Source: Cyanophora paradoxa CCMP329 (Eukaryota; Plantae; Glaucophyta). Taken from it: DNA of 64,000 nt. The notes beneath the pieces are model-generated. The model was given only the letters and a program-made list of their open reading frames with translations. It did not search any database and had not been told where the DNA came from. Numbering within the stretch: the first letter of the stretch is position 1; every line of letters begins with the position of its first letter. The stretch covers positions 1 through 64,000 of the forward strand of contig QPMI01000508.1 of NCBI GenBank assembly GCA_004431415.1, read 5' to 3'. Made by a program: the position numbers and the translations under genes. Of this stretch, positions 1 through 61,097 are shown in pieces.

Positions 1-3000
1 GCGTCTTTGATGTCGACGGAAAGTTAATATACAAATTCGCGGCGGAATCAATTAACAAAAACATCTTTCCCCGCAATATTCACTTTATGATTCACAACAA
101 GCACATCTATATATTCAACGATAACATCAAGTCGCTCGAAATGCGCATGGCAAAGATGGAGGTCGAAGAGCTCGATAATCATGTTCCTAAGTCGAACTCT
201 TCGTTAGCACTCTATAAAATTCCGACGTGTCTTACTCACGATATCTTCGCGCACACATCCAAGGATTTGTTAAAGATCACGCAACTTAAAACTATCGCCC
301 GACGAGCGCAGTTTCATCCGCATTCTGTATACTGGGCGCGAAGGTCTGGAAGGTCTTCTATTTACGTTCCTGAAAATGCGATATGAACCCGCTGTGAAGC
401 TAACACCATCGAAACAGATCGACAGCATCACATTCAAAGCTAATGGCTCGATGTTCTCTATCAAAGATCCACGCACAACAGACCACTTTATTGAGCAAGA
501 TTTCGAAACAGAGGAGTATTATAATAAGGTCTGTGAAATCGGGAAGGGATTCCGCGAGTCGCTTCTAAATGCGACGAATATCTCACATTACAGCCCGAAC
601 ATGCGCGAAATTCTCACGCACTACAAGCGATCCGCACTAAGTGGCTTTTCTATAAGCCGAACCCGAAAGCCACCTACACAGCTGTCGATATGGCGAAGTG
701 CTACCTTCGATACTGAAAGGCATGCAATATCTTCCGAATACAATGTGTTTGATGACTTCGTTCCCTTTAAAGCGGGAAGCGATATTCTCGAATACGCGAT
801 CTACTACGTGCGTGTCGTTGCGTTTGAGAGAGAGCAAGCGACTTTCGCCGACGATGAGGATGTAGATTATGATGCCGCCATGTCTCGCAAGATTGATGGA
901 ATCGAAATTATTCTGGATCGCGCATTTCCGTGAGTGGTCGCTGTTATAATTTCATGACAGGCTACACTCTCTCCATGCATTGGGCGGACGTAAAGGACAA
1001 GATAGAGATTATCGCGGTCGCGGAGCCTTCGCATTTGGTGCCCAATACGTCGATCGCTGAGATGCAAAAAGTGCTGTCAAGCGACATTCAAACCACAGAT
1101 AAGAAGCATATTTTAGTGAAGAGATCGGAATGCTCGGCAAATTCCAAGACTCGCAAACATCCACGAAAATGTTCTACAACCGTGCCGAGGCTGAGAGGTT
1201 CGCCAAGAATGCGGAGGAACATAGAGGTGTTTACTTTCAATCCTAAGATTCGAAACGTGTCAAAGCTCTTAGCGAATTCGAAGGTCACATCTATTTCGTT
1301 AAGATCAGCTCCCACCGCGAGCTCGTTAACGGATTCCTTCCTATCCACTTTCATATTTACGATCGTAACCGTGCTAATATGTTTGCGCAATACAAGCGCC
1401 TGACAGCGCGGGCACAAGGTTGCCGGGATCAGAACGGATTGCCTATATATCGAAGGTTCATGGACAAGTAAGAAAGAGTTTGACCGAAATGCGTTTGAGA
1501 ACATGGGCAAGTTCAGCTATATTCCCGGGAAAAGATGCCTGAGAATGCACTCCGCCCACCACGGGGTGTAACTCTCGAATTTCAGGATCCGAGACACTCA
1601 TTAACCGGTTCTCGCTGAGGGACGAATTTAATCCGGAGTGCTTTAATTGGGTTGCGAAGCTCCATAATCGTATGCTTGTCCTTGCTGACATGCCCGGAAG
1701 TGGAAAGTCGACACTCGGTATTAACTGTTTCGCATCTCAGAATTCGAATTGCTTAGTTATTTGCCCCTATAACAAACAGTGCGCAGAGCTAAGGGACTCC
1801 CTGAAAGTCCGCGGAATCGAGAATATTACCGTTCGTACTTTGTATAATGTTCTCGGGATCCGTGTCTCAAATGATCAGACCTACGAAGAGGCTATGAGCG
1901 AGAAAGACCAGAGGGCGTTCGTCTCCGAGTTCAGTCACATTATGTTCGACGAGATATTCGCGTATTCTGTAAAAGATCTCGCTAAGATTAAGTCGTTTAT
2001 CGATCGCTATCCCGATATCAAATATTTGGCTAATGGCGATACCTATCAGAACGAACCAATTAATGACGAGCTCTCGGTTTCTGATCGCAAGGGCTACTAT
2101 AAGCGCGCTGTGCAGAGCATGTTCCCTAATGTCCTGAGTCTACGCATTAACAAGCGGCACAAGAAGGAGACAGACCGTGAATTAATTCGGGCGATTAAAG
2201 AGGATCTCTTCGAAAACGGACTCGAAGCCTCACAGATTATCTCGAAATACGGGTTGCCGACAATTAATGATCTAAGCGCCATTCCCGACGGCTACTTTGC
2301 ATCGCTTACAGAAACGAAATGACCTTAGCCTATAACAAACTGATGCACGATAGACGAAAAGTAAATATTGCAACCGTAGAGGTCAACGGCATCAAATTCT
2401 ACAAGGGTTTGGAGGTCGTTTGTCGCAGGTATCTACGCATTTCGCGGTCTGAGGGTGAGTCTATTAACGCATACACAAATTACACCTATCGGATCACCAA
2501 AATCACCAAGCAAATGGTCACATTAACTGACGTCTTCGATGGCGTCACGTTCGAGGTTCCGTGCGCGATGTTAGAACATTTTTCTCTCCCTTATGCAGGA
2601 ACAGGTCATTCAACGCAAGGTCTCACACTTGATTCGGGCATTGTCATTTGTGAGGCTACGTTCCGCTATACCACTCGCGAATGGTTCTATACCGCGCTCA
2701 CTCGTAACCGCGATCTGTCTACGGTGCTGATTTATACACCTATTCACAAGTTCCAAGGAAAGAGCGACTACATCGAATATCTGAAAACGAAGATCCGCGG
2801 TTATAAATGCCAGGATCAGCGTGCCGGTCGCGATTTCAACGAGGCGGATTATATTACGCCGGAGTGGATATTAGAGCGCAAGAAGCAACAGAAGGGCGCC
2901 TGTGCGCTCTGTTCCCTTCCGATTCCGATTGAGCCGCAAGATCCGAATTACAGGCTCGTCGTGGATCGCATCAATAATAAGCGCCCACACCTTAAAGACA

Positions 3001-3044
3001 ATTGTCAACTCGCGCATCACGGGTGCAATTGCAGCAAACAATAG
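1..3044 (+). CDS. Divergent family B DNA polymerase - SF1 (Pif1/RecD-like) helicase - HNH-type nuclease fusion, 5'-incomplete and split by several frameshifts
   Basis: Stitching frames gives PolB motif A-like AVDMAKCY(P)SIL (~681-716), IGMLGK (~1124) and GIRTDCLY (~1426-1450). Helicase motifs follow: MPGSGKST, IMFDEIF, NGDTYQ, HSTQG, YTALTR. C-terminal CALC...VDRINNKRPH..DNC..AHHGCN. Confidence 0.8.
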
Positions 3045-3140
3045 TCGGAAAAATTGTCGGGAATTAATTGGGGAGAGGGCAAAAATTGAAAGGTTTGGTA
3101 ACTCCCTCGGTCAGTCAAACAAGCAAGTAAGTCAAGCGAA

Positions 3141-3611
3141 ATGGAACAATTCATTGATTATTTCAAGGCGAACAATGTCACCTACAAGGATGTCACACAC
3201 GTTTTCACTAAGGATTCTCTCAAAGGCTTCCATATGATTTGCGACCTGGCATTGAAAACCCCGAATATTGTTTACATTGGTCAATTGAAGAACACGCCAG
3301 CGTATCAATTGCAAGAGAACGGAATTGCAAAGGGCGAGATCATGATGATGAAAGGCGACAGATGGGCATCAGGCATGCATTTTATCGAAAACTTTGTTAA
3401 AAATTTCCTGAACGGAGCCCAATGCATTGTGTGCTTCGAAAAAGTAGAGCGGGGCTTGGGTTGCAGCAAATGCAACGCGGTAGTGTGTCTTGGTTGTTGG
3501 AAAAGCATTATGGACGCAACTATGATGAGTGCAGGCGGCTTCAAATGCCCCGGGTGCCGCAAACTATACCCTAATACACCCGTGCACATACTGACTAGTG
3601 TCTTGATTTGA
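3141..3611 (+). CDS. RING-finger protein (putative E3 ligase)
   Basis: CIVC-x9-CSKC-x4-CLGC...CPGC at the C-terminus of a 156-aa ORF. Confidence 0.7.
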   Translation: MEQFIDYFKANNVTYKDVTHVFTKDSLKGFHMICDLALKTPNIVYIGQLKNTPAYQLQENGIAKGEIMMMKGDRWASGMHFIENFVKNFLNGAQCIVCFEKVERGLGCSKCNAVVCLGCWKSIMDATMMSAGGFKCPGCRKLYPNTPVHILTSVLI

Positions 3612-3644
3612 AACCGGAAAATATAGATACCATTAATAAAAAGA

Positions 3645-5027
3645 ATGTCGCGGATCGTTAGAAGGGGAGGAGATGAGGAAACGGAGACGACCATGTTACC
3701 TATCGCGGTTCCCGATTACGAAAAAGTCCCCCAAAAAATCACAAAACGCCAAGCAAAATCAAATTTATTAGGAGATGTTCCTTTTAGCATTGCTAACCCG
3801 TCCTCTAAGATCGTGCGACGCATGTATGACCCGAAGACAGGTTTTAAGAACCCATCGGCATTGTACGAAGAGCTGAGAAAAGAGGACAAGAGCCTCACAT
3901 TGAAAGAAGTGCAAGATGTCGCAGCGAAACAAGAATTTATGCAGATCAACAAGAAGCCCCCCGCACCGACCCAAACCGCTTTTATTCCCATCACAGCCCC
4001 GCCGTGGTGCTACCAAGCAGATCTCATCTTTTATCTCTCATATGGCAATTATAATTCCGGCTACATTGCAGTCCTTACTCTCATCGAGATGACAAGCCGA
4101 AAAGCATATGCCAAGAAGTTAAAGAATAAGGAGGGCGCAAGTGTTGCCGCCGCTTTTGCGGAGATGCTCACAGAGCTCCCGGCTCCGATGATTCGATTGG
4201 AGACAGATAACGGTTCGGAATTCATCGCGAAGGAGTTTCAGGAGGTCGTAAAAAATAATGGAATAGAGCACCGCTTTAAACAGGTCGGAGATCACACTTC
4301 GCTGGGAATTATGAATCGCTTTCATTTGACCCTAAAAACGATGATAAACAATTACTGTGTCGCCTATAATACAGTGCGGTTTATGGATAAATTGGACGAC
4401 TTCGTTTTCAATTACAATAACACCATTCACAGAACCATAGGAATGAAACCCGCAGATGTTAGGCTTTCTGATATGGAGCGGATCCGAGCGGCTATTATTT
4501 CAAGGAAGAACACAATCGTAAAGGATATATTCAGCGACTTTAAGCCGGGTCTCCACGTCCGTGTATTATTGCCGAGATCAAAGTTTGATAAAGGAGCAAC
4601 ACAAAGGTATAGCCGAGAGGTCTACAAAATTGCGGGAAGGAGAGGAAACGCGATAGAGGTGCAAGATGCAGCGGGGAACGTAATGCCGAAGCTTTTTAAG
4701 CCGCACGAATTGCAGATCATTACAGAGGTCGAGGCTGTGGTGGAGCCATCAGGCAACGCAATCAAAGCAGCCGAAATAGAAGCCTCCTCTATCCGGCAGG
4801 TTCAAAAAGAAGGTATAGATGTCGCCACAAGTGTTCCGAAAGGGGCTTTATTGGAAGATCGCGCAGAAAAGACAAAGAGGGCGCTGAGGGAGCTCGCTAA
4901 ATTAACGATCGCGGGAACTGAGAAGCTCTCTGAGGTAAACAGTCAGCGGTGGTATAAATCATTCAAGAATCAGAGCGCAAGCTACACAGCCCCTACTACG
5001 CGCATTCTTCGGTCTTCTCGTTCATAA
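3645..5027 (+). CDS. Retroviral-type (RVE) integrase, Polinton-like (copy A)
   Basis: YQADL, LETDNGSEF, GIMNRFHLTLK, YNNTIHRTIGMKP, G.HVRV...FDKG motifs. Confidence 0.9.
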   Translation: MSRIVRRGGDEETETTMLPIAVPDYEKVPQKITKRQAKSNLLGDVPFSIANPSSKIVRRMYDPKTGFKNPSALYEELRKEDKSLTLKEVQDVAAKQEFMQINKKPPAPTQTAFIPITAPPWCYQADLIFYLSYGNYNSGYIAVLTLIEMTSRKAYAKKLKNKEGASVAAAFAEMLTELPAPMIRLETDNGSEFIAKEFQEVVKNNGIEHRFKQVGDHTSLGIMNRFHLTLKTMINNYCVAYNTVRFMDKLDDFVFNYNNTIHRTIGMKPADVRLSDMERIRAAIISRKNTIVKDIFSDFKPGLHVRVLLPRSKFDKGATQRYSREVYKIAGRRGNAIEVQDAAGNVMPKLFKPHELQIITEVEAVVEPSGNAIKAAEIEASSIRQVQKEGIDVATSVPKGALLEDRAEKTKRALRELAKLTIAGTEKLSEVNSQRWYKSFKNQSASYTAPTTRILRSSRS

Positions 5028-5066
5028 CAAACCCCGAAATTATTTTCTCCGGTAAATATAAAAGAG

Positions 5067-5381
5067 ATGGAGGGTGAAAAGCATTTCGTGGATATTCCGT
5101 TTGATAAAAAAGACGTTGCGAAATCCCTCGGTGGAAAGTGGGATCGTGAGAATTCATGCTGGTATGTCACGAAAAAAGATCACTCTCTATGCTCTCAGTT
5201 CAAGACTCTAAGCTATGAGCAAGTGTATCAAAGAAACTTGAAGGTTTACCTCGATATTCCTTATGAATTTAAGGATCAAGCGAAGGCTGAGAAAGCCCGC
5301 TGGGATCCCGTTATGCGATGCTGGTATGTCATGGGTCTCGATCACCCGCTAATGGGCAAGTTTCCGATCAAGGAGCATTAA
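5067..5381 (+). CDS. Tandem DUF5710-like domain protein
   Basis: Two copies of (F/Y)xDIP(F/Y)xxKDxAKxxxxxWDxxxxCWYV. Confidence 0.7.
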   Translation: MEGEKHFVDIPFDKKDVAKSLGGKWDRENSCWYVTKKDHSLCSQFKTLSYEQVYQRNLKVYLDIPYEFKDQAKAEKARWDPVMRCWYVMGLDHPLMGKFPIKEH

Positions 5382-5406
5382 ATATATCTGTCGTTTTTTT
5401 CATTTT

Positions 5407-5799
5407 TTATGAAATTGGGAACCTTTGCTCGACCTGTAAGTCCCACTTTCGCACTTTCAGCCTTTCCTGTATGAGATCGTTAATGTCCTGTGCTATACCC
5501 ATTGTCTTCGCTTCGGCATTTGAGCCGCATGTAAAGATATCGATCGCTAATAGCCCCTGGTCGCTATAAGAGTGAGCTGTGGCATGCGACTCATCTAATA
5601 GAAAGCCAATCGCGAAACCGGGAGGGGAATTAGAGCCATCGAAAATGCATGTGTGCTGGTGCACGATGCGCATATTGCGATCTGTGATATATTGCGATAG
5701 GTTCGCTGTGATCCACTCGGCGCATGCCTCCGGGGACTCGTTGAACGGGTCGGTTATATAGTCGAGCATAACGTGATAGCCGCGGTATTGGGAATCCAT
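5407..5799 (-). CDS. speD: S-adenosylmethionine decarboxylase-like pyruvoyl proenzyme (prokaryotic SpeD type), copy 1
   Basis: GYHVMLD, H..IFDG..SPPGF, LLDESH self-cleavage site, TAHSY, LAIDIFTCG. Confidence 0.85.
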   Translation of the reverse strand: MDSQYRGYHVMLDYITDPFNESPEACAEWITANLSQYITDRNMRIVHQHTCIFDGSNSPPGFAIGFLLDESHATAHSYSDQGLLAIDIFTCGSNAEAKTMGIAQDINDLIQERLKVRKWDLQVEQRFPIS

Positions 5800-6067
5800 T
5801 ATTATTTAAGTCGATATTTTTACCCTGTTCATTTTATCATTTTTCATAGATCATGCATGTTGTTCGCATGTATCTTGCATAGTGGGCGGGGCGCGAGTTT
5901 ATTTTAACGTGGTCTATCGTCGTACTTTGTCGTAAATATGCTAATCGTACATTTCGATTCGTACATTTCGATTGAAGTCGCAAGTTTGTGCAGGTGGGCA
6001 TTTTCGGCATGCTTGCTCATGCACAAACTTGCTTTAAAAAATATTAATCTCATTTTAAAATCATAAA

Positions 6068-6391
6068 TTAGCTCGTCCGAGTCTCACTATAACACTGTCG
6101 GCATTTATAGTAGAGACCATCCTTCGTACTTTGCTTTTTATTATACTCGCTTGCAGGCTTCTCAATCTTGCAATCCGGGCATATCTTCGATTGTACTTCG
6201 ATTTTCGGACGCGTTTTTAAGACATTGTGATAGTGATCATTTTGATAGTCACGGTGGCACTCTATGCATCTCCAATATAATGTTATATTTCCCGACTTGC
6301 ACTTGCGCAAAGGGAACCACGATGCAGGCTTGACCTCTTTGCACACATTGCACAGTTTACTTTTAGGTAAGGGGAGCTGATTACCCGGCAT
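6068..6391 (-). CDS. Small protein with two CxxC..CxxC zinc-binding repeats
   Basis: KLCNVCKEVKP...CIEC and KICPDCKIEKP...CRQC. The ATG at 6391 is preceded by the TAAAG motif seen at other element genes. Confidence 0.65.
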   Translation of the reverse strand: MPGNQLPLPKSKLCNVCKEVKPASWFPLRKCKSGNITLYWRCIECHRDYQNDHYHNVLKTRPKIEVQSKICPDCKIEKPASEYNKKQSTKDGLYYKCRQCYSETRTS

Positions 6392-6779
6392 CTTTATACT
6401 TGTATAGTGGGAAATCTTTAAGTGGGATATACGCACTATATAAGTTAATTTAACCTATCGGTGGGGCTCACCTTGATTTTTCAAATTGGACTACTGAAAA
6501 CAGTTCGACAAGGATCAGGAACATTACGCAAAAAATAGGGTCTTACTGTCCTTACTGAGAGATCGGGGGAAAGTTAAAGGGCTTACTGGGAATGGTAAGG
6601 AATTAGAAAAATGAAGAATGAAAGGGTTTCGTGATTGGTTTCAGTAAGGAAGGGTTAGATGTTTGAAAAATACAATGTGGCTCAGTGCGAATTTGTGATT
6701 TTGTGACTGAGATTCGTGATGCTGAAAATGTGCTTATTGAAAATGGTCGCGGGAAGGTCGCGTAATTGGTGGGGGCCAC

Positions 6780-8698
6780 CCCCATGCGAGCATTGGGCAA
6801 ACTGGAAAGCAACGAAATAGCAGAGTGAAAACCACCATTTTCCACAACAGAGACGATGCGATCGAGTTCCAGAAACAGAACGGAGGGGAGGTTAAAATTT
6901 ACCTCTTTGGTGAGACTCTTGCCACTTATGAGGAGACAGAGTTCGTTCTGTGTGAGGAAGAGATGACCGAACCCCATATCTACTATGTCAATCAGGTAGC
7001 AGAAAAGCAGCTCATTGATGGCTTCATGCCATTGTACACTACCCTCTTGTCAATTATGAGGATGTGTATGTATGAGAAGTGTGTCGAACTCGCTAAACAG
7101 CAGATCCGACCACTCGCTTTGAACACCGATTGTGTTTATGGGATCGCTTATGAACCCATTGCCCCAGTGTCATTCGATCGCAATGCCTTTGAGAATATTG
7201 GAAAATTCAGTGTGAAATGCTGCCCCAATTTTTCTAAAAAGTTTTCAGGTGAGAAGAAAGACCTCGAGGCAAAACGAATTCGTTACGGAAAGTTTGAGAG
7301 AGCGACTGACTTTGTGAAAATCGAGAACTACAGTTATACCAAACACTCTGTGGTTGATGAGTATGACACAACCGCGATTTGTGATTTGCTGGCTACACAA
7401 AAACGATGGGTTCTTCTCGGATCAGTTCCAGGAGTTGGAAAGACTCACATGACAGTTGAATATGGGAAGCGTTTCAAAAATCCCCTCTATATTGTTCCGA
7501 CCAACAAGCGAGTGAAGGAAATGAAAGAGCAAGGATTGAAAAATGTGAAGACAATCTATGATGCCCTTCATCTCAAAATCGATGAGTCGAACATGGATGA
7601 AATCGTAGGAGGGAATGCATCTGGTTTGGTAGAATTTGATTGCATTGTTATTGATGAGATCTGTCAGTTTAAGATTGGAGAACTGGCAGCCCTGGACCAC
7701 ATCATGAATGAGCAGTTCCCAGATAAGGTATACATTGCCACAGGTGACCCGTATCAGAACCCACCCATTCAGGATATGAGTGTTGATCAAGATGAGTATT
7801 ACCTTGATATCCTCCATCGCCTGTTCCCCAACGAATTGTTACTCCAAGTGAACAAGCGCCATGAGACTGAGGAAGATCGCAGAAAGGTTGAGCAAATTCG
7901 AATTGATTTATTCGAGAAAGGTTTGAGTGTAAGTGAGGTCCTAGCAAAGTACGGGTTCAAGGTTGTGGACGAATTGGCAAAGACAGATAAAGGCATTGTG
8001 TATACAAACCGCAAGGGTGCAGAGGTGAACCTAGCCTTCACAAAATGAACTACGGGGATAATGTTTCCATTTATGCTGGCGGGATCAAAGTTGTTGCAAA
8101 GACTCGTATTGCAAAGGGTGGGAAGATAGTTCATAATGGATTTGTCTACAAGATTGTCAAGCTCTCAAAGGACAGTTTCATTATTGCTGACATTGCCAAC
8201 AAGAAGGATGAGATTGTTCTCAGCAGGGATGCAGTCAAACATTTCGCCCTGGCTTACGCAAACACCTGCCATGTTGTTCAAGGTGATACGATTCGCTGCA
8301 AAGGGAACAGGGTAGTCGTGTTCGAAACTGGGGCGCCATTTGTTTCAAAGAAGTGGCTATATGTTGCTCTCACTCGAACCACAAGGCTGGATGATGTTGT
8401 TATTTACCATGATAATTTCGAAATGGCTCACTGGAAAGTGTGGAAAAGAGAGAATAACGAGAAGATTTCGACTTACAAGGATCAGGACCGAGCAGCAAAC
8501 AGACAATTCGATGAGCATGATTACATCACATGGGATTGGATCAAGCAGCGATATGGGAAGCAGTATGGGCATTGCCTGCGATGCTACAATGCCATGGACT
8601 TTGAAGATATTTCGGTAGATCGAATTAATAATGCTGTGGCTCACATTACCAAAAATTGTTTCCTCTCTCATATTAAGTGTAACTGTGCCGCCCAATAA
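6780..8698 (+). CDS. Second PolB(C-terminal part)-SF1 helicase-HNH fusion, 5'-truncated, frameshift near 8045
   Basis: ALNTDCVY and FDRNAFENIGKFS match copy 1 (GIRTDCLY, FDRNAFENMGKFS). Also VPGVGKT, VIDEIC, TGDPYQ, HVVQG, YVALTR and SVDRINNAVAH..NC..SHIKCN. Confidence 0.8.
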
Positions 8699-9757
8699 TG
8701 GATAGTGTATTATCATTCAAAAGTATAGGCAGAAACTGATTAATGAAAAAGTGAGTTTTGATGAAAAAGAGTTGAAAAAGAAGTTCAAAAACTCAGAACT
8801 CCAGCAAATTTACAAGAAACCAAGGAAACCCAAATCGTTTCTTCGCATAGTGGCAAAGCCTAGATCGTTTCAAATCGATATAACATATTTCAGAGGGTTC
8901 AGACTGCCAACAATGGCATTTTCAAAATGCTTAGTTTCGTAGACATACTTAGTCGCAAAGGATTTGTTTATCCTTTTAAAAACAGCAGTGAGATCCCGAG
9001 CATTTTAAATAGGTTCAAGCAAGAAGCAGGCAAAGTTAATGCTCTCTCTGGGGATAATGAGTTTTCCCAGGCAGTATACCGAAATTGGTGCAGTGAACAT
9101 GGTGTAATGCTATACACAGATGTGGCAAAGGATGACCACATCACAGTAGGAGATAAACTGGGGATAATTGATAGGTTCACTAGGACTTTCAAACAGTATC
9201 TCAGAAAATCGATGACAGCAAAGGGAACCACGAAATGGATCGATCTACTTAGTGATGTAATTGACTTGTATAATAGCAGTCCCCATTCTGCATTGAAAAA
9301 TGACTCTCCAAATGCAGTGTATACAAATGAAGATAAACAGTTATTTATTTACATGAGGGATACTGTTCACAACAATCGTGTAAAGGAGGCTGATACTAAT
9401 CAAGTGAAACCAGGAGACACAGTTCGAGTTTTGCAACCAAAGGGATTGTTTGAAAAAGAAGGTGCGCAATTCAGTCAGAAGGTCTACACTGTTGCAAAGG
9501 CTGATAGGAATCGTTTCAAAGTGCTTGAAGATAATGATGGTGAGGAAACAAAAGAAGTGAAGAGGAGATTTAAGAAACAAGAATTGCAAAAGGTGAATAA
9601 AGATGATATCATTAAGATACCATCACAAAAACGGATTCAGCAGGTTAATAAAACGAATAAAGTGAATCGATTGGTAGCAAAAGAAGGCATAAAACCCAAT
9701 CGGAGTAATGTAATTCGGAGGAGATACAATTTGAGAAGTGGTTTAACGAAACGCTAA
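8698..9757 (+). CDS. RVE integrase (copy B), frameshifted near 8900; start approximate
   Basis: FQIDIT, VDILSRK, LSGDNEF, LGIIDRFTRTFK, YNSSPHSAL, GDTVRV...FEKEG. Confidence 0.85.
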
Positions 9758-9762
9758 ATCAT

Positions 9763-10110
9763 GGGAGACACGGCGGATGAAAAGGATATAACTTCGATTA
9801 AATATAATTAATCGAGATTATGATATAACTTCGATAAATAAGATTTAAGATATAACTTCGATTAATTCGATTTTTGTTACTGAGGCTTACTGAGATTTAG
9901 TGAGATTTGGAATTGGGTTACTGTGAATGGTTTGTTTTTCTTGGGAATTGTTTTGGAGACACGTCGCATAAAAAAGATATAACTTCGATAAGATATAATT
10001 AATCGAGATTATGATATAACTTCGATTAATTCAATGTTTCTTACTGAGGCTTACTGAGATTTACTGATATTCAAGATTGGGTTACTGGGAATGGTTTGTT
10101 TTCTGATTTG
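9763..10110 (+). repeat. Two diverged ~190-bp units with iterated GATATAACTTCGAT and CTTACTG motifs
   Basis: GGAGACACG starts each unit (~9764, ~9955, again ~10139). Five GATATAACTTCGAT copies. Confidence 0.8.
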
Positions 10111-10170
10111 TTTTTGATTTTTTCGCGGGTATTTTTTTGGAGACACGCCTGTGACGCCTGTGACGCCTTT

Positions 10171-10291
10171 TTAATTGAGTGTGACGCCTGTGACGCCTGT
10201 GACGCCTACTTTCAAACTTTTTAAAATTTCAAAAATCTACAAACCTCTGAAAACAGGTGTCACAGGCGTCACAGGCGTCACACCCAATTAA
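10171..10291. repeat. ~120-bp hairpin unit with 37-bp inverted arms of (TGTGACGCC)n; copy 1 of 3
   Basis: 10171-10207 pairs with 10255-10291 with 2 mismatches. Homologues at 25552 and 25843. Confidence 0.9.
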
Positions 10292-10434
10292 CCACAGACT
10301 CCCCCCTGTGGGTCGATGACTTTTTCGATTCTTTATCGGACAATATAAAAACGTATCGTAAATCGGTGTGTTTTGACAAAAATTGACTGGCGATTTAAGG
10401 GATCATTGCGTTTTCCCTTTGACTTTGACAGAAC

Positions 10435-10626
10435 ATGGATTATTTCGACGAAATTCAGCGGCAGCTGGTCGAAAAGAATGATATTGCAGAGGTAGCGGAA
10501 TATATTGCAAAGATCAGAGCCAGTAATGGTAGACCATATCAAAAGAAGCGATTCCATGCAAGCAGACTTGACACAGTAAATGTATATGTCCCCAAAGGCA
10601 CGAATGTGCGAATCATTAGAACCTGA
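10435..10626 (+). CDS. Hypothetical small protein
   Basis: 63-aa ATG ORF just upstream of pPolB; no recognised motif. Confidence 0.4.
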   Translation: MDYFDEIQRQLVEKNDIAEVAEYIAKIRASNGRPYQKKRFHASRLDTVNVYVPKGTNVRIIRT

Positions 10627-10682
10627 AAAATGCGAAATGCGTTCAAATTGCCCAAAAATAATATGTTCCCTTAAAGTAAAAG

Positions 10683-13600
10683 ATGCCCCGCCAATCCAAT
10701 AGAATCATCAAAGAGAAGAAAAACGAAATACTCGGTCTTTTAGGAACCCTTTTAGTCACTGGTGATATTACAGAATTTGAATATGATCGCCAGGCAGCAA
10801 TCTTGGATAGGAGACCAAGATTATCTCAACTCACAGAAATGACAAATCGCCTCTATGATCGTTTTGAGAAAATGGAGGAATTCAGGGATGAAGGTTTAAG
10901 GTTGGGAACAATTGAACCCGAGATTGAGGATGGGGAAGCAATGAACAAAGCATATTCTTGGTTAACCTATCGAGCAAGAGGTGAGGTTATCCAAGATGGG
11001 ATTGAATTCTTGGAGAGAATTGCACCCAATCTACCACAGAGACTGAGACAGAAACTCCAAGACCTGAGAGCAATTAAAACTCGTCTCACATTCATCTGTA
11101 AATTCACCAAAGTGAGTGATCCAAGGGTGTGGATCACCAAATTCATTTACAGTGATTACTTTGTCATCACAAGATCACGAAATATTGATGTTGAACTGCG
11201 AAATGCCCTTCAATCTATGCAGGAGCAGATGATGCAGGTGGACAGTTACAGACTGGATCGCATTGAGATGCTGAGAGTGGTAATAATGTCTTATGCTCCT
11301 GTGGGTGGTTGCTTCTTCTCAACTCCTGAGTGGATTGGATCAAAGAGAGCAACTGTGAATGTCAAGAATATTGATGGTCAAGATTGCTTCAAGTATGCAA
11401 TCTTGGCTTACCTGCACCGAAATGATATTAATAAACACAAGAGCAATGAACCCAGCCAGTATAGAAGATGGTTAAACGAACTCAATTTCGAAGGCATCCA
11501 GTTTCCAGTTGCCTGTGATGCAGAGGTTATTGATCGATTTGAGGAGCAGAACCCTGAACTGAGTATCAACATTTATGGTGCAGATAATCAAGCACAGTGT
11601 TTCTATCCTCTCCATCAATCCAGCAACCCGAGGAGAAAGACCAAGATCAACCTTTTATTAATCGAAAACGAAGAGGATGATAGAGGGCATTATATCACCA
11701 TCATGTCTCTGAGTAGACTCCTGAAAACCACCTTTGATAAAGCCCATGATGGTCGCATTTATTACTGTGAGACCTGCCTGTCTCGTTTCAGAACTCAGGA
11801 GAAGCTGGACATTCACTTAGAAGCCAATCGCTGCATTGATTGGAGGGAGAGCAAAGGTAAATGCCCGAAATCTGGAAGTCAAATTGCATTTGGGCTTCAA
11901 CACCTTCGCAAAACTGTGTGGCTTCCCACTATCTGCTATGTAAAAATGGATAGTCACTCGGTTCCAATTGATGAGAACCGCAGTAAAAGAGAGGTAAAAT
12001 CGGTTTCTCTAACAGTTGTGATGGGGGATGAGGTGATCTCTCATCATTTCGAGGGATCAGATCCACTTGGTGCTCTGTTTACCACTCTCACAGAGATCAG
12101 ACCCCAAGTAATCCGCACTCTATTCACCAATATTCCAATGCACCCACTCACAGAAGAGCAGAAAGCACAATACAAGATCACTAAACACTGTTATATCTGT
12201 GCCGAACGATTTACCCATGAGAATTTCCCAGTGAGAGACCATTGTCATCAATCAGGAGCATTTATTGGGAAAGCATGCCGAAACTGCAACCTCCACAGAA
12301 GAATCTCAAAGCAAACCAAGGTAGCAATTGTGGTGGATCACATGGATGAATGTGGACACGAAATATTCCGCAAAATTGCACAGCAAGATGATAAACTTCG
12401 TGTTGAGATTCTGAGCAAGAATTTCGACCAATACCTCTCCCTGCAATGGGGCATGTGGAAATTCATTGATGCTTCGCATTTCATGGACTTCCAGGCAGTG
12501 GATGCAAGTGATCTAATGGGTAAATTCCAGACTTTCCGAGAATTGGCGTTTTCCCAATATGGATTAGATCCTGCCCATTATGTTTCGGCTCCTGGATTAT
12601 CCTGGATGCAATGCTAATTTATACCAGAGCAAAGATTGAGCAGATCAGTGATGTAGGGCAATACGAATTTATTGAGAGGGCAATTCGAGGTGGGTTTGCT
12701 ACAATGCCTACTCGATATGCAAAGGTGGAAAACCCAGATGACCATATAGTTCTCTTGGATGCAAATAATCTGTATGGTTATGCTCTCAGTCAAGAACTGC
12801 CCATTGGCGATTTTCGATGGGAAGATGTCTCAGAGGCACTTAAAGAGACCCCAGGACGAAGTGCCTTCATTGAAGTTGACCTGGAATACCCACAAACTCT
12901 CACAGATCATTACGATTTTCCACTTGTAGTGAATAAAGAGCATGTCACCACCGAAATGCTGGGTGGGTATCAAAGAAAGTTACTGGATATCACAGGTGAG
13001 AAGATAAGCAAAGACCCCAAACTCACAGCAACATTCTCACCCAAAAACAACTATGTGATTTCCCAACCTCTCTTGGTCTATCTTGTGAGCAAAGGTATTA
13101 TAATCACGAAGGTTCACAGGGTTCTCTCATTTGCAACCTCTGCATTTATGAATAGTTATATTGATCTAAATACGAAATTGAGGCGCCAATCTATGTCCAG
13201 ATTCGAGAGTGACTTCTTTAAATTAATGAACAATGCAATCTATGGTAAATGCCTCGAATCATGCAGGGGTCGCTCTGTGGTAAAGATTGCAAACAGTGAG
13301 AAACTCTGCAAGAAATATGCTGCAAGTCCACTCATCAAGGCAACCAATGTATTAAACGAAAATGCTGTTGCCTTTGAGATGTATTCCAAGCATGTTCACT
13401 TAGATAAACCTGTTGCAATTGGTGCTTTCGTGCTGGATTTTGCGAAACTCCATAATAGCAGGTTCTTTTTTGATGTGGTGAGGAGAACTTGGGAAACAGC
13501 AGAGCTACTATTCCATGATACAGATTCTTTCTGCCTACTGCTGCATACCAATGATCTAAATAATGAGATGAAGCGAATTTCTGAACACCTGGATTGCAGT

Positions 13601-13944
13601 AATTATGATCCCTCCCACCCTCTCTTTGATAGGAGCAATCGTTTGATTCCAGGTAAATATAAAAACGAGTTTCCCAATGCAAAGATTGTGGAGTATGTAG
13701 GTCTGAGATCGAAACTCTATGCTTTCAGAACTGAGACCTTTGATAAAATAAAGATGTCTTTCACTTTGATGATTTCAAAAGATGCCTGTTTGAAGGCATC
13801 ACCAAAACAGTAGCAGTAGTAAACAAGCGAAGGCAAGACCACAACCTATATGATTTGGAGAGCAGAAGGGTGGCTCTAAACCAACTCGATAGCAAAAGGA
13901 AGATATTAGACGATGGAATTCACAGCATTCCATTTGGGCTCTAA
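10683..13944 (+). CDS. Maverick/Polinton protein-primed family B DNA polymerase with C2H2 zinc finger and endonuclease VII-like insert; frameshifts near 12605 and 13750
   Basis: NVKNIDGQDCFKYAILA, CETC..H, CYIC..VRDHCHQSG...AC..CN, YGLDPAHYVSAPGLSW, RGG, DANNLYG, FKLMNNAIYGK, HDTDS, GLRSKLY. The C-terminal D.KRKILDDGIHSIPFG lies in the shifted frame and ends at 13944. Confidence 0.9.
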
Positions 13945-14127
13945 TCTACTTCATTGATCTTTCTTTTTCTTTGGTTTCGCTCTCCAAGAAGTAACAAACC
14001 GCGAATTAAATGCAGCAGCCATATACATCTTAATCCTGGATCATTGGGCTCAATTGCAAAGTAGTTTGGAATTGTGTTCTCCTTCCACACAGACTCTTGC
14101 ATTTATTATATGAGAGATAAGGTAAAG

Positions 14128-15527
14128 ATGCCTTCTACACAAATAGGATTGAGACAACCACCAAGAATTGTGAGAAAAGAGGCAATTGAAGATCGAGGGA
14201 ATATCCTGCCCATCACAGTTCCAGTGGAGGAGAAGAGCAGTCGAATATTAAAAAGATCAGAGATGGTCAAGCAATTAATCCAGAGACACTCCCAGCTGAG
14301 ACAGCACCAAAAGAGTCAAAGATTGCTAAGAAGTTCTATGATCCCAGGACAGGCTACAAGGGATTTACTGCAATGAGACAGGAACTACCAGAGGAGAACT
14401 ACAAGAAGATGAGAGAATGGTATGATAAGCAGGAGGTTGTCCAAATTAATGCACCCACCCTATCTCGAAAGAGAGATCCCATGATTCCAATTAGGCAACC
14501 CCTTGATACCTATGTGATTGATCTGCTCTTCTTTCCTGCATACAAAAAGCAGAATGATGGTTATGATACATTTATGAGTGCAATGGAGTCAACCCTGAGA
14601 ACAGGGTTCATTATTCCAATGAGAGACAAAAGTGCTCTTACTACACTTGCAGCATTCAAGCAACTTGAACAGAGAGTCCCCAGACCTATTGTTCGCATTC
14701 AGAGTGATAGTGGAAGCGAATTTACCAATGTGTTATTCACAGATTATTTGGGAACGAAATTCATTGAGCATCAACTAAGTGATGTTGCAGATCACAGAAC
14801 CCAAGGTCGAATTGAAGCCTTTAACAGACAGATCAAGAGATTGATCACAAACTACTGCATTGCAAATAATACTGCACGATTTTTTGATGTGTTGGGTGAT
14901 ATTGAGTTTAATTATAATAATACCATTCACTCTGCAACCAAGAGAAAACCAGCAGAGACCACAGAAGCCCACTACAAAGAGATAGTGAATATGGAGGATC
15001 AGAGATTCAAGAAATCGATTGAGTATCTTGATGCCCTGAAACCTGGAATGTTTGTGAGAGTGAAAGTTGAAAAGAACCCATTTGCAAAGCAGGGAGTTAA
15101 TTGGTCTCGAATTGTTTATAGTGTGGAGGGCAGAGAGGGCTTCAAGTTCAGAATCAGAAGTCCCAGTGGTGAGATAGTTGATGGTAGATTCGCTTTTCAT
15201 GAACTGCTGCCCATTAAAGGTGTTGAGTATCATGAAACTCCCACAGTGGATGCCCTTGAACAGGCAAAAGAGGAAGCCAGGGTTGATTCAGCAATCAGAA
15301 AGGAGGGCATTGAAAAAGCAAGTGAAGTTCCAAAAGAGCCCCTCACAGAAGCAAGAGCACAAAAGAAGGGCAGAGTAGAGAAAGAATTAAAGAAGTTGAC
15401 CATAGCAGGAACCCAGAAGTTATCAGAAGTTAACAGTCAGAGGTGGTATAATGACTTTTCAACCACCAAGGAAACATATACTGCACCCCAAACTCGATTT
15501 AATTTACGAAGTGGGCAGAAGAAATAG
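14128..15527 (+). CDS. RVE integrase (copy C), frameshift in the N-terminal part (~14240-14290)
   Basis: YVIDLLF, IQSDSGSEF, QGRIEAFNRQIK, YNNTIHSATKRKP. The shifted N-terminus FYDPRTGYK matches MYDPKTGFK of copy A. Confidence 0.9.
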
Positions 15528-15528
15528 A

Positions 15529-15771
15529 TTAACAACGCTTTCGGAATCTCTTAGACCTCTGGCGAATTTTCCTCATTTGTCTATCTTTTTCAATAATTTC
15601 CAAGAAGAAAGTTTCAAGGTTTGAAACCAGTTGGTAATTGTAAACAAAGAACAGTCTCACATGCTCTGGCTGTGACATGAAGAAATTGTAATAGAAAGCA
15701 GTCTTGAAATCATGTATCCAATCTGACTGGGAAGCATGGATGATAGCAGGGTCTTGGTAGATGGGATCCAT
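15529..15771 (-). CDS. Hypothetical protein with basic C-terminus
   Basis: 80-aa ATG ORF converging on integrase C. Confidence 0.4.
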   Translation of the reverse strand: MDPIYQDPAIIHASQSDWIHDFKTAFYYNFFMSQPEHVRLFFVYNYQLVSNLETFFLEIIEKDRQMRKIRQRSKRFRKRC

Positions 15772-15931
15772 AGCAGAAGTTGAGAGAATCCAGAAAATCC
15801 TTGTCAATTTTTTATTTTGTTAGTGCCCGATCTCACCGAAACCTGATAGCCGCTGGTGAGAGGATTTTTAATCTGTTTTTAGTATTAAAAACGGAGCAGT
15901 TGGTGATAAAATACATATATATGACCGATAT

Positions 15932-16032
15932 TGAAGTTTCGGTGAAGTTCGGTGAAGTTTCAATGAAGTTTCGGAGCGAAGTTTCAATGAAGTTTCGGTG
16001 AAGTTTCGGTGAAGTTTCGGTGAAGTTTCGGT
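15932..16032 (+). repeat. Tandem 11-bp repeat (GAAGTTTCGGT)n
   Basis: About 8-9 imperfect copies seen directly. Confidence 0.85.
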
Positions 16033-16059
16033 CAATAGGATAATTTGACGAAATAAATT

Positions 16060-16266
16060 AATTTGTCACCAGTGACAAATTATGTCACCGGTGACAAATT
16101 ATGTCATCGGTGACAAAATTATGTCGTCGATGACCGAATTCACCAAAGAAATTATGTCACCGGTGACAAATTAAGTCATTGTTGACCACATTCACATAAG
16201 AAATTATGTCACCGGTGACAAATTAAGTCACCGGTGACCACATTAATTATGTCACAGGTGACAAAT
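16060..16266. repeat. Array of about 9 palindromes, consensus TGTCACCGGTGACA
   Basis: Iterated AATTATGTCACCGGTGACAAATT with variant centres. Confidence 0.9.
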
Positions 16267-16687
16267 AAAACTATGATGCATATGAAAACATATATATTGC
16301 AGATATACACAAAACCTCCGCATGACCGGTTGACTCAGACGGAATTTCTGGTAAAAAAGTGTATATATATGCATATATATACTTGACGGTTCGCGTTACT
16401 ACTGTGGGCATCGCGTTGCTGCTGTGGCGATTTCGCCATCTTCAAACGCTTGTATCTCCTCACCAGATCATCCGCTCGCACCCGCTAAAATAGCGTTAGA
16501 AAGCGCTTGAAAAGATCTACACGACGATATAGGTATCAAGTATATATACGTATATATTACATACAGTAAAATAATGCGAAAATACAGTAGCTACTGTTAA
16601 AAATCTCTACAATGTATACGACGATACAGTAGCTACTGTAAAAAATCGCCATAATCTGGCGCACCATACATCAGAAGTCCTGAATTT

Positions 16688-18229
16688 CTATACACTTCGA
16701 ATAAATGCACCTGTAACATCCACTCTCATAGTTGGGGCATTTATATATACAATTGGATAAATACGAATATACCTTGTCCTCACAGGGTAGCCAACATAGA
16801 AAACGTCTCTAATAGAGGTGGGAAACCCAGAACTGTATGAGACATCACCACTGTTATGGGCATTATTAATAGTTTCACACATGAACACTCTGTTGACACC
16901 TTCATACTTGATAAATGACCAGGAAACACCATCTTGTGATGTTGCAACATTGAAGGTCTTAATAAAGGCATTGGTCACACCAGAACCATATGCAATTATA
17001 GATGCAACCTCAAATATATATGGGAAGGATAATTGGAGATACTCAGTGGGAACACTCCATATCCCATCAGGAGCAGATGCATTTGCCTCCCAACCAGTTA
17101 ATGAAGGTCTTGCTTTAAATGCCTCCCTTCCAATTTTTGATGATGAAGCAGTGAATGCACCATCTGATAGAAGATACCAGTTAGCATCAATGGGAGGTAT
17201 GTTATTCAGAGTGGATGATATATAGAACCTTGCAGGGTTCTTGATTTCATAATTTGCAACCAGTAAATCACAGAGTCTATCAATCATCACAGTGTTTGCT
17301 GCTATATACATTTCGGTTGCATCTATCATATCTGGTATCTTAGAGGTATCATCCAGAGAGTTTACTATGGTCTTTGGAAGTGGAACAGAGAGTCTATAAT
17401 ATCTTGCATATCCTTGGTCATCATTATATGGGAGAAACTCTTGCATCTTTTCCAGGGCTGAGAGTTCACTTGCAGCCATCAACATATTAATTAATGGACT
17501 CCCAGAGGTCGAAGCAATCCATGAGAGAATGCCCCAGCTGTTGACATCTTCATAGGAATATCCCACATTTGGGGCATCTGTTTCATTGACCTCACCACAG
17601 GATATACTGATCACAATTATATCATCATCATCATCATAGATCTTTTTAGCATGGCTGTAACCGCATACACTGGGATTGTTGTTACCTGATATTGCACCAT
17701 CAATTAGAGACATCCCATCATAGTTCACAGGTGAGAAGTAAGTAGGTGCAGCAGAGGTGGATCTTGCAGCAATCTTGCTGGGGATAGATTTGTAGGAGTT
17801 ATCATTGGTGATAAAGATGGGCTTCATACTCACAGTATCAAAACTTGTGATCACCACATCTTTTAGAGAGTCTTGGATGAGAGACTCACCAGTAACAGTG
17901 AGAATGGCTGTCTCCAATGGGGTCACATCATACTTGGTGTTGAAGAGGGCATTATCTATAATATTTCGGGGATTTGCAAAGATTAAAGGCAGTTGGTTGA
18001 GATAAGTGGAATGCAAATCGGTTGCAGTGAGTTTAGGTTCGTTTGGAAATTCGGGGTTTTTCACATTGAGACCAATCGCAATTATCCCACCAGTGGATGT
18101 TCCACTCACCAGGTCAACAAGATCTATTACTCTTTTTCCTGTTCGAGTTTCGATTTCTTTTAGCAATCTCGTAATAATTATACCACGAGCTCCCCCACCT
18201 GATAATGAGAGAATTACACGAAGGGGCAT
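16688..18229 (-). CDS. Patatin-like phospholipase fused to a C-terminal F5/8 type C (discoidin) domain
   Basis: SLSGGGARG, GTSTGG nucleophile elbow, STSAAPTYF, IDGA. C-terminal FTASS...EYLQL...VATSQDGVSW...TRYIRIYP...MRVDV. Confidence 0.9.
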   Translation of the reverse strand: MPLRVILSLSGGGARGIIITRLLKEIETRTGKRVIDLVDLVSGTSTGGIIAIGLNVKNPEFPNEPKLTATDLHSTYLNQLPLIFANPRNIIDNALFNTKYDVTPLETAILTVTGESLIQDSLKDVVITSFDTVSMKPIFITNDNSYKSIPSKIAARSTSAAPTYFSPVNYDGMSLIDGAISGNNNPSVCGYSHAKKIYDDDDDIIVISISCGEVNETDAPNVGYSYEDVNSWGILSWIASTSGSPLINMLMAASELSALEKMQEFLPYNDDQGYARYYRLSVPLPKTIVNSLDDTSKIPDMIDATEMYIAANTVMIDRLCDLLVANYEIKNPARFYISSTLNNIPPIDANWYLLSDGAFTASSSKIGREAFKARPSLTGWEANASAPDGIWSVPTEYLQLSFPYIFEVASIIAYGSGVTNAFIKTFNVATSQDGVSWSFIKYEGVNRVFMCETINNAHNSGDVSYSSGFPTSIRDVFYVGYPVRTRYIRIYPIVYINAPTMRVDVTGAFIRSV

Positions 18230-18278
18230 CTTTACTTAACTCAAATTTAATAAATCTCTATAAGTAGAGTAAATTGGG

Positions 18279-21200: not shown

Positions 21201-21473
21201 ACATTTTCTACCCCATATAATAGTGATCCAATAGTTAATGCTACTCTCGAAAATGATATTATCTTAACAAGTGTCAATTTTACAAACAGCATATATATCT
21301 CCGCTGAATTTGTGAGTGGGAACCGTGTTGGTTTCAAAAATAAATTCACTTGGATTGCTATATTTACTTGTTACTCGGACATCAATTATACGAATGTGCC
21401 CCAAAACGAAAGAACCCTTAAACTCCATTGGATTGCTGTCGGACCTCTCCAAAACAATAATATTCTCACGTAA
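18279..21473 (+). CDS. Large repetitive fibre/tail-fibre-like virion protein
   Basis: Phage-fibre-type motifs P..TNTKDLG...W.NI, YLPLTGGTVTG, (LHAVATSG.Y.DL.NTP)x3 and (PPEDH.H.W..I)x3, plus acidic YLPDG repeats. C-terminal VTFSTPY..DPIV...LHWIAVG resembles gp53/H-lectin domains. Confidence 0.7.
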   Translation: MSFNYPANLQTIPSSGRGKADNKHVNFDNLTARGSISIDHSADEPSKTHPRMHALSINEMDPEKEDVSVAFSMGNVKSNQVAQIKATRSRPRKLKTSATHPDIPTRFDSGRLIFNVQNEKGGHQSGLRIYNEGSNAIAQIPEILQIAPHAETNKIEFTNNVYPRDIVANSASNAQFGFQLPGDTAKNKASITVNSSPTQPVTIHLHPDLVEMDRHLLPLVTNTKDLGIRTRQWRNIHGSNVYANGEKLVSEKTIREIFEYYGPVPVPFPLPWDPPDLTPKKQPGREYTADETVPFGQHIVSWEQVRNKPIIEPRKQIDEQYLPPEIDILELDEYQFVPDEEEYLPDGFDPQEYEYDQYDPNEEEYLPDGLDPQEYEYEQNYEPHEEYLADGHEPPVVDYEQPYEPHEELLPDGFRPEIWEFFPDWEQINNKPARYPPEDHNHDWDEILGKPEKFPPEDHRHDWGDIDGKPEEFPPEDHLHIWSEIREQPTFASAGNVLLGDINNGVSLYQNIDTPARLQLNDYYVNRKGIDAGTTMEGELYIRPPTRNGILGLGGGIEIKDTKPGIYLTSYYADDIPMTGGLISLPSDPANYDDKNAAIQINVTDVSDLDSSRPKLIFSRERLLPDALLGNRDDYKQCEVAWIKTNYNGGVGEGVLEINQRAAAKNIHNETISRVVTEDYLRDNGATIIAGIAVEGAYLPLTGGTVTGDVHAPNFLVDTPNAQTFPVVHPGAEYILDANTPISRVELPTNFTFNLVDEFPNSHNLMYFSSENYLSGAFSPIELSIPKQKVSYKELTDVPAGFSGKWTDITEKPTWSSVAFTGDYYDLSRIPDFTTYIPRWIDQSVIISESTLPFNGTWDRLFTKPNLHAVATSGDYNDLTNTPTAPTLHAVATSGNYNDLVNTPNLHAVATSGNYDDLINTPTSPPTHNHSIELLTNFGNYVNANAYVQQGTANVVIPAGVYYKGDFTTVSGTVTFSTPYNSDPIVNATLENDIILTSVNFTNSIYISAEFVSGNRVGFKNKFTWIAIFTCYSDINYTNVPQNERTLKLHWIAVGPLQNNNILT

Positions 21474-21493
21474 TTATAAAGAGCAATTTAAAG

Positions 21494-60884: not shown

Positions 60885-61097
60885 GCTGCGCATGCATGCG
60901 CAGTGCTAGCTATAGTGCCCCTAGCCTATAGCCTGCGCATGCATGCGCAGCCTGCAGATTCAAGCTTCGATTCGCGAAACGGCGCGAATTCGAAGCCATC
61001 GAGCTCATGATCAGGCTATCGATATTTCATATGCACATGCACATGCATGCAGCCGCCCTCTGAATTTTACCATGTACCTGTACCCGGCCCTTCACTT

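Follow-up and report, generated by a model that had tools for sequence, protein, structure and literature searches.

The pPolB-S1H fusions, or 'Tlr1-like helicases', are a described protein family of Polinton-like viruses (PLVs; PMC5499653, PMC11161782, PMC13215967). Such viruses likely replicate their own DNA and insert it into genomes of microbial eukaryotes. Fusions of pPolB with an SF1 helicase and a C-terminal HNH domain have been reported in PLVs, and an RVE integrase in Tlr1 (PMC5499653). The single Asp in motif C of these proteins was initially taken as a sign of inactivation (PMC5499653), a view later reversed since this Asp is also missing from active polymerases (PMC11161782), and in both studies the HNH tail was taken as an appended homing endonuclease. 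Tlr1 of Tetrahymena thermophila combines the fusion with an RVE gene and is multicopy, with ~30 copies per genome (PMC5499653), but has a GIY-YIG tail instead of HNH and encodes MCP, mCP and ATPase. The transpovirons of mimiviruses possess a pPolB-S1H replicase and a divergent zinc-ribbon gene and have no capsid; however, they are ~7 kb episomes without such a nuclease tail (PMC5499653), and the word 'integrase' is absent from PMC7031253. In OmPLV (PMC12721341), polymerase and SF1 helicase also form one protein that is fragmented in assemblies, but there the helicase comes first, the exonuclease is full, the recombinase is a tyrosine recombinase, and the protein belongs to another family.

The window analysed here, a 64,000-nt stretch of the Cyanophora paradoxa CCMP329 assembly, contains two genes of this type (copies 1 and 2; Table 1). 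With good confidence, we assign both to pPolB-S1H with an HNH tail and consider it likely that they are the replication-integration arms of two Polinton-like elements (elements 1 and 2), endogenous and multicopy, in the genome of a microbial eukaryote. The domain order, the motifs, the family membership, the adjoining RVE genes and the presence of many copies in short-read contigs are direct observations. The polymerase-helicase-nuclease fusion is real but ordinary, being a member of an already described family: the architecture, the HNH tail and the pairing with RVE were known before, and the novelty lies in two divergent endogenous members. Accordingly, an earlier note's proposal of a new kind of element has to be abandoned, given the pPolB-SF1-HNH proteins of PLVs and the pairing of the fusion with RVE in Tlr1.

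Table 1. Features of the window discussed in the text, with their positions, strand and supporting evidence.
Feature	Position	Strand	Evidence and remarks
Copy 1, pPolB-S1H-HNH fusion	1..3044	+	N-terminus cut by window edge; at least 8 frame changes; profile positions 328-1283
Putative C-terminal part of vOTU protease domain	3..281	+	Invariant His ~102-104; position as in PMC11161782; assignment inferred
PolB palm, copy 1	660..1540	+	Motif A DMAKCY, 687-704; motif B region KKHILV / IGMLGK, ~1100-1141, interrupted by a frame break; motif C (xTD) RTDCLY, 1431-1448; fold of relative P0008
SF1B (Pif1/RecD2/Dda-like) helicase, copy 1	1597..2720	+	Pfam AAA_30, AAA_19, UvrD_C_2; motifs Walker A PGSGKS, FDEIF, GDTYQ, GHSTQG, ALTR; folds
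C-terminal zinc-binding HNH / endonuclease VII-type domain, copy 1	2800..3044	+	PHROGs endonuclease VII, E 5e-11; HNH
RING-finger gene	3141..3611	+	Pfam zf-RING_4, E 1e-4; between copy 1 and integrase 1
RVE integrase 1	3645..5027	+	Pfam rve, E 1.7e-13; Asn at third catalytic position
DUF5710 two-repeat protein	5067..5381	+	Pfam, E 4.7e-24
S-adenosylmethionine decarboxylase	5407..5800	-	Pfam AdoMet_dc, E 1.3e-11; paralogue of 25058-25459
Double zinc-ribbon protein	6068..6388	-	PHROGs zinc-ribbon-type, E ~1e-11; divergent from copy 2
Copy 2, pPolB-S1H-HNH	6792..8698	+	5'-truncated, starts in motif B; profile positions 665-1282; frame change near 8030-8070
RVE integrase 2	8744..9757	+	Frame change near 8860-8940; Asp at third catalytic position; Pfam rve_3, weak, E 0.005
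Element 3 (separate): canonical pPolB with endonuclease VII insert, and RVE integrase 3	10683..15527	+	HDTDS motif

A search for relatives yielded 522 clusters at E<=0.001; among the best 150, most are single proteins of 1200-1450 aa. From 100 intact full-length homologues (1150-1530 aa) we derived a family profile of 1302 positions. The pieces of copy 1, which lie in frames 3, 1, 3, 2, 3, 1 and 3, match this profile in order, bearing out the proposal that 1-3044 reads as one polypeptide across frame shifts; stitched with X at the breaks, they match it at E 2.8e-215, and the first ~330 profile positions fall before base 1. All 100 relatives keep the Asp of motif A (D583), the Lys of motif B (K696) and the Asp of motif C (D828), and T827 is found in 94 of them, so that the one-Asp motif C of copy 1, previously called atypical, is the norm of the family; it is discussed in PMC11161782. 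Also invariant or nearly so are a Cys/His pair, the motif B pattern KxxxNxxxG, the xTD, the helicase motifs and the HNH cysteines; the HNH signature is present in 79 of the 100 relatives. One named homologue, PolB-S1H of Capsaspora MELD virus 1 (DAC81521.1; 27% identity over 448 columns, pairwise E 1e-36), has the same motifs and the HNH tail but is no close neighbour in the tree and belongs to a virus with adintovirus-like virion genes (PMC8502044). In the family tree (108 sequences with this one named member, without Tlr1, transpoviron and PLV-SAF/Bnat sequences), both copies nest inside the family as sisters with support of 0.895. Viral-contig scans with the C-terminal ORF of copy 1, with another relative (P0011) and with the integrase alignment gave no match, a word-indexed search with one alignment (A3) returned its own first sequence alone, and no match was found among phage records.

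The model of an intact relative (P0008; pLDDT 81.7) predicts a palm fold, in agreement with the earlier assignment of PolB: residues 106-577 resemble the polymerase of phi29, a protein-primed enzyme and the best polymerase match (Z 14.4, rmsd 4.6, 350 aligned), residues 215-580 match DNA_pol_B_2 clusters at 0.93-0.96, and residues 600-955 resemble Pif1/Dda/RecD2 helicases (Z 24-26). The palm assignment is taken from this relative; the single-sequence model of copy 2 had a pLDDT of 32 and was not used. Foldseek returned helicases throughout, with no polymerase among the matches listed, and phi29 appeared only in the wide VIA search. Alignment of the family with the canonical pPolB of the window by hhalign recovered motif B alone and was not significant. 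Upstream of the palm, a putative vOTU pair comprises a Cys in 101 and a His in 102 of 103 relatives; copy 1 has the His, the Cys position falls before base 1, and no OTU fold is among the fold matches listed for P0008. The Tlr1-like helicases of PLVs share the N-terminal extension, the Cys/His pair, the one-Asp palm, the C-terminal SF1B helicase, the HNH domain and a length of 1000-1400 aa (PMC5499653, PMC11161782). However, whereas PMC11161782 has vOTU adjoining the palm, here the palm is separated from the putative vOTU His by ~150 aa, which align to the N-terminal part of the phi29 enzyme. No Asp or Glu is invariant between this His and motif A, the best column being mixed D/E in 83 of 103 sequences; judging from these alignments, an active proofreading exonuclease looks lost in the family, and the model makes a remnant of an exonuclease-like fold possible.

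Copy 2 had been described as a diverged paralogue with the same domain order. The order and the shared FDRNAFEN.GKFS stretch hold, the HNH motifs align in both copies, and motif C is NTDCVY, but the gene is 5'-truncated: it begins at profile position 665 (base ~6790), lacks motif A and keeps half of motif B. Upstream of 6792, contigs from three sequencing runs continue for 1.2-1.8 kb with different sequence. Across the helicase and HNH parts, the two copies are 32-33% identical. The family of copy 2 is nearly uniform. One short-read contig (X1 record 8) aligns to 8004-9761 with 0 substitutions and 3 gaps. We regard copy 2 as a truncated representative of another family (~32% identity), placed against the end of element 1. 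A recent duplication of one cassette was rejected on account of this identity and of the integrases, which are not sisters.

The view that an RVE integrase follows both copies stands for the genes themselves, integrase 1 matching rve and integrase 2 weakly rve_3, but after copy 1 the RING gene intervenes. The latter is a variable insert whose depth is close to that of a single copy (18.5, against ~600 on the replicase in X1 contigs), and some contigs skip 3216-3635. At the third catalytic position, the 55 aligned integrases have Glu in 50 cases, Asp in four and Asn in one, integrase 1. The paralogy of the AdoMet decarboxylase is seen in an 80-nt stretch that is 73% complementary to 25220-25299; eight flank ORFs gave one weak match in a Pfam scan. 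As proposed, the fusions are distinct from the gene at 10683: both copies are helicase fusions with xTD, whereas the latter has HDTDS. A canonical Polinton/Maverick combines a stand-alone pPolB, an exonuclease, DTDS and RVE, which copies 1 and 2 do not; neither do they resemble a transpoviron (~7 kb, linear, no integrase or nuclease tail), as both end in HNH and are followed by RVE.

Element 3 (~10.2-25.9 kb) is flanked by copies of a palindromic 134-nt repeat; it carries fibre-like genes and no recognisable capsid. We considered the repeats (10158, 25539, 25830) as TIRs of copies 1 and 2 and rejected this, as they are self-palindromic, in direct orientation and belong to element 3; repeat comparison within the window gave no TIR pair for elements 1 and 2, whose left ends are absent from it. 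Integrases 1 and 3 share 38% identity and form sister lineages (support 0.997). This placement of integrase 1 with its counterpart from a canonical pPolB element suggests a replicase swap between neighbouring elements; such swapping is reported to be common (bioRxiv 10.64898/2026.06.19.733378).

Short-read contigs from three DNA runs have small indels at the frame breaks of copy 1, 11 being listed inside 1-3044 relative to the window, so that the breaks probably reflect mistakes in assembling a repeated region. Homopolymer slippage was rejected as a demonstrated cause, there being no enrichment (9 of 11 fall in runs of at least 2, against a background of 0.76). Nevertheless, copy 1 may be truly decayed, because 9 substitutions in 553 nt separate it from the deepest contigs and the third catalytic residue of integrase 1 is Asn. 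Two presumed RNA runs (X16, X21) contain scattered pieces only, which have no bearing on expression.

Among 33 fetched loci, 14 encode the fusion; the others (17 unrelated stand-alone helicases, one fragment and one without a match) were left out of the neighbour counts. Palm and helicase share one ORF in 12 of the 14, and in intact relatives PolB palm, SF1 helicase and HNH domain form one polypeptide adjoining an RVE integrase, as had been proposed; RVE lies downstream in five of the eight judgeable loci. In one viral contig (L005), an A32 ATPase and a capsid-like gene precede the fusion, which is followed by RVE.

Capsid genes, a feature of PLVs, were not seen in the window, where both elements are cut upstream. 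The same protein family could thus serve capsid-less, integrase-bearing self-synthesizing transposons or satellites that borrow a capsid in trans or move within the genome only, which we consider unlikely. Scanning of 1-26.7 kb in all frames, where all gaps are below 1.3 kb, revealed no MCP-like gene, A32 ATPase gene or canonical P-loop, although the MCP profile consists of two sequences and is blind to other capsid families. Neighbouring element 3 likewise combines fibre-like genes with no recognisable capsid. A zinc-ribbon gene divergent from copy 2 recalls transpovirons and PLV-Bnat (PMC5499653), but it abuts the truncation junction and may have come to lie there by accident. Among BFVD matches over the whole length, the best is H6WBE3 (999 aa), presumably a transpoviron helicase. 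Against all this, an ATPase match occurs in 6 of the 14 fusion loci, and elements 1 and 2 are both cut on the side where L005 and another locus (L003) carry capsid-like and ATPase genes; as in L005, capsid and packaging genes would likely lie upstream in intact copies. A broader version, which we hold to be improbable, is a capsid-less RVE satellite community (two pPolB-S1H-HNH elements and one with canonical pPolB and fibre genes) that shares an integrase lineage, AdoMet decarboxylase and terminal motifs, has swapped replicases and obtains its capsid in trans, the inactivated exonuclease-fold domain marking an intermediate between pPolB and Tlr1-like helicases.

That the palm is an inactive remnant, the protein being a helicase scaffold that recruits another polymerase, such as the canonical pPolB of element 3 or a host enzyme, also appears improbable. 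The one-Asp motif C, first read in this way, and the apparent loss of proofreading, with no invariant acidic residue between the vOTU His and motif A, would fit; however, all 100 relatives retain the Asp of motif A, the Lys of motif B and the Asp of motif C, and the inactivation view has been reversed. Very improbable is the earlier proposal of a new kind of element whose polymerase, helicase and nickase work as a single enzyme; nick-initiated rolling replication would be one such mode. The HNH tail is more frequent in full-length relatives than a passing parasite might be expected to be, but architecture, tail and RVE pairing are each in print and all occur together in L005. Furthermore, the tail is exchangeable, because Tlr1 has GIY-YIG in its place and two relatives (L001, L004) end without an in-frame HNH. 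In line with the published reading, the HNH domain is in all likelihood an add-on of the homing-endonuclease type rather than a required nickase.

Following the family literature, we envisage replication of the Polinton-like elements in which the vOTU domain would cleave off an N-terminal priming protein and the palm would carry out protein-primed DNA synthesis, starting at the ends of a linear genome. Unwinding ahead of the palm would fall to the fused SF1B helicase (5'-3' in its class), taking the place of a working proofreading domain, and integration of the linear DNA into host chromosomes would fall to RVE. With this locus, a family described in 2016 and revisited in 2024-2026 gains two divergent endogenous members, and the occurrence of sister integrases next to different polymerases makes a tidy example of replicase swap. 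The family of copy 2 could yield an intact pPolB-S1H for asking whether such palms polymerize, and the meaning would be larger if full-length copies proved to be capsid-less.

The fusion of polymerase, helicase and HNH domains is real in both copies. A first search with the copy 2 ORF retrieved 6 long homologues, and a follow-up search of an unindexed library yielded 522 clusters (cut-off E<=0.001); from the 154 homologues collected, 100 proteins of 1150-1530 aa were used to build a profile of 1302 positions. Copy 1 is collinear with this profile over positions 328-1283, and copy 2 over 665-1282; thus, the fusion is genuine, the start of copy 1 lies outside the window, ahead of base 1, and in copy 2 the N-terminal half of the protein, including motif A, is missing. 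The copies are 32-33% identical to each other. Invariant among the 100 relatives are the motif A Asp, the motif B Lys and Gly and the motif C Asp, along with one Cys and one His that precede the palm. All motifs read in the earlier note were recovered in place, as was an RVE integrase after each copy (by Pfam, integrase 1 matches rve and integrase 2 has a weak rve_3 match).

The same note took the fusion for the mark of a new element; the fusion, however, falls inside an already described group of Polinton-like viruses (PLVs), and copies 1 and 2 are new members of the known pPolB-S1H family. The relevant parts of PMC5499653 describe Tlr1-like helicases as pDNAP-SF1 fusions of 1000-1400 aa, with a C-terminal HNH domain in PLVs and an RVE encoded by Tlr1. 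Those of PMC11161782 give the domain order TP-vOTU-palm-S1H, with HNH or GIY-YIG tails, and a motif C one Asp short for which activity is nevertheless predicted. According to sections of PMC8502044, MELD viruses of Capsaspora, Trichoplax, Physarum and Powellomyces use S1H replicases; PMC12220804 and bioRxiv 10.64898/2026.06.19.733378 report that fusions with S1H occur widely and that replicases are often swapped. The excerpted account of PMC12721341 concerns a fusion with a domain order opposite to that of copies 1 and 2, and that of PMC7031253 treats transpoviron genes. Among 20 deposited names looked up, one relative is 'PolB-S1H [Capsaspora MELD virus 1]'.

An AlphaFold2 model (pLDDT 81.7) of the intact relative P0008, which is among the two closest neighbours in the tree, was compared with 48,161 PDB chains. 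Residues 600-955 resemble SF1B helicases (Pif1, Z 25.6; Dda, 25.2; RecD2, 24.2), and residues 106-577 resemble phi29 DNA polymerase (Z 14.4, rmsd 4.6, 350 aligned); DNA_pol_B_2 clusters, in which 11-25% of members carry this family, match residues 215-580 at 0.93-0.96. The top viral structural match, whole-length, is H6WBE3 (999 aa, E 7.6e-35), presumably a transpoviron protein. The stretch that separates the putative vOTU from the palm (window 304-660; P0008 residues 106-220) holds an alpha/beta domain, which falls within the structural alignment to phi29 polymerase that starts at phi29 residue 6. This domain is possibly what remains of an exonuclease that has lost its activity; the consulted parts of published family descriptions do not mention it.

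By analogy with the family, the priming protein would be freed by proteolysis, the palm would carry out protein-primed DNA synthesis, the fused helicase would unwind, and the RVE would integrate the element DNA. Members of the family can differ in their tail, and the HNH is most plausibly a homing-type nuclease that was appended; since 79 of the 100 relatives keep an HNH-like signature at the C-terminus, it may still have a role.

The three replicase-integrase cassettes lie within an island of 38-47% GC that spans roughly the first 26.6 kb; past its end, GC is higher, at 55-85% across most of the remainder, with short C/G-rich repeats. The host is probably a microbial eukaryote with a GC-rich genome. 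In short-read run X1, single-contig depth is about 590-880 for copy 1, 426-446 for copy 2 and 560-670 for element 3, whereas a contig in the flank, at 28170, has 17.9; this suggests, as a rough figure, a few tens of copies of each. On the host side, a perfect inverted repeat of 29 nt (26647-26733) adjoins a repeat pair (26852-28213 and 31096-32341, 93-94% identical, with short ORFs without assigned function); farther on are a near-perfect inverted repeat (59550-60884; 258-nt arms, 99%) and a tandem array of at least 7 units of 26 nt (61069-61302).

Elements discussed in the text (window positions, except for the database locus L005)
Feature	Position	Content	Remarks
Element 3, multicopy	10158-25963	canonical pPolB, RVE, patatin-F5/8 protein, four fibre-like genes (one with C1q), AdoMet decarboxylase	flanked by 134-nt palindromic repeats
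S-adenosylmethionine decarboxylase paralogues	5407-5800 (-) and 25058-25459 (+)		each close to an element end
L005 PLV arm, apparently intact	1641-12795	A32 ATPase, lipase-like gene, capsid-like genes, 1294 aa pPolB-S1H-HNH, RVE

Contigs from three DNA runs (X1, X2 and X10) span the stretch and bear on whether its frame breaks reflect assembly error or decay. Within 1-3044, at least 11 small indels relative to the contigs, mostly from the deepest one, lie near frame changes, and a single X1 contig matches 8004-9761, where both element 2 frame changes fall, with 0 substitutions and 3 gaps; these observations favour assembly error in a repeated region. Copy 1, however, also differs from the contigs by substitutions (9 in 553 nt), base runs are not over-represented at its breaks, and the residue in integrase 1 is Asn at a position where the aligned integrases have Glu (50/55) or Asp (4/55), so the copy 1 element may be partly decayed, with assembly error still the favoured source of the breaks. 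The truncation of copy 2 is specific to this locus: in all three runs the contig match begins exactly at 6792, with 1.2-1.8 kb of other sequence upstream, and hence longer copies of this second family exist.

In a midpoint-rooted FastTree phylogeny of 55 integrases, integrases 1 and 3 and one database protein form a clade (support 0.997), with integrase 2 elsewhere. In the tree of the fusion proteins, copies 1 and 2 are weak sisters (0.895). Integrases 1 (3645-5027) and 3 (14110-15527) are 38% identical and have a C-terminal tail in common, the replicases beside them differ, and elements 1 and 3 share the AdoMet decarboxylase gene. The simplest reading is a replicase swap. In 1-26.7 kb, all 13 copies of CTTACTG, on either strand, fall in the non-coding junctions 6390-6800, 9757-10680 and 25460-26640, as do 16 of the 17 copies of GTGACGCC in the latter two; both motifs may be terminal or origin signals that the elements have in common. 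A further cluster, of GTCAC palindromic repeats, is at 16050-16290. A RING gene (3119-3662), at near single-copy depth within a multicopy element and skipped by some contigs, marks the space between replicase and integrase as a slot for variable cargo.

Bounded by its palindromic repeats, element 3 looks complete and has no recognisable MCP or A32 ATPase; PMC8502044 describes contigs of other protists with adintovirus-like PolB and integrase and unrecognisable virion genes. Three fibre-like genes (21494-24571) have an N-terminal LRADKxxGVVK-like motif in common, and contig depth there is very high and uneven, with many joints, suggesting a fibre array that varies between copies. Across 1-26.7 kb, where gaps are under 1.3 kb, there was no canonical P-loop, ATPase or MCP match, the MCP profile comprising two sequences only. 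Among four papers retrieved for capsid-less elements of this type, none appeared to describe precisely this case.

The RVE paired with the fusion is not special to the window copies; it also occurs at five database loci. The fusion is encoded in 14 of 33 loci fetched, 12 of them with palm and helicase in a single ORF. An RVE lies directly downstream in L005, L016, L017 and L018 and 2 kb off in L002; three loci, each with at least 0.9 kb of downstream sequence, have none, and six end too early to judge. The rve profile contained the L002 and L005 proteins, both independently confirmed by Pfam. Six of the 14 have an ATPase match (three confirmed by Pfam Pox_A32). In L005, ATPase, capsid-like gene, fusion and RVE follow in this order on one strand, and a 474 aa protein matches viral clusters at 0.97-0.98, in some of which 10-29% of members carry double jelly-roll capsid families. 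Elements 1 and 2 are cut on the side that carries the ATPase and capsid-like genes in L005, and this locus is a good reference for the ATPase-capsid-fusion-RVE gene order.
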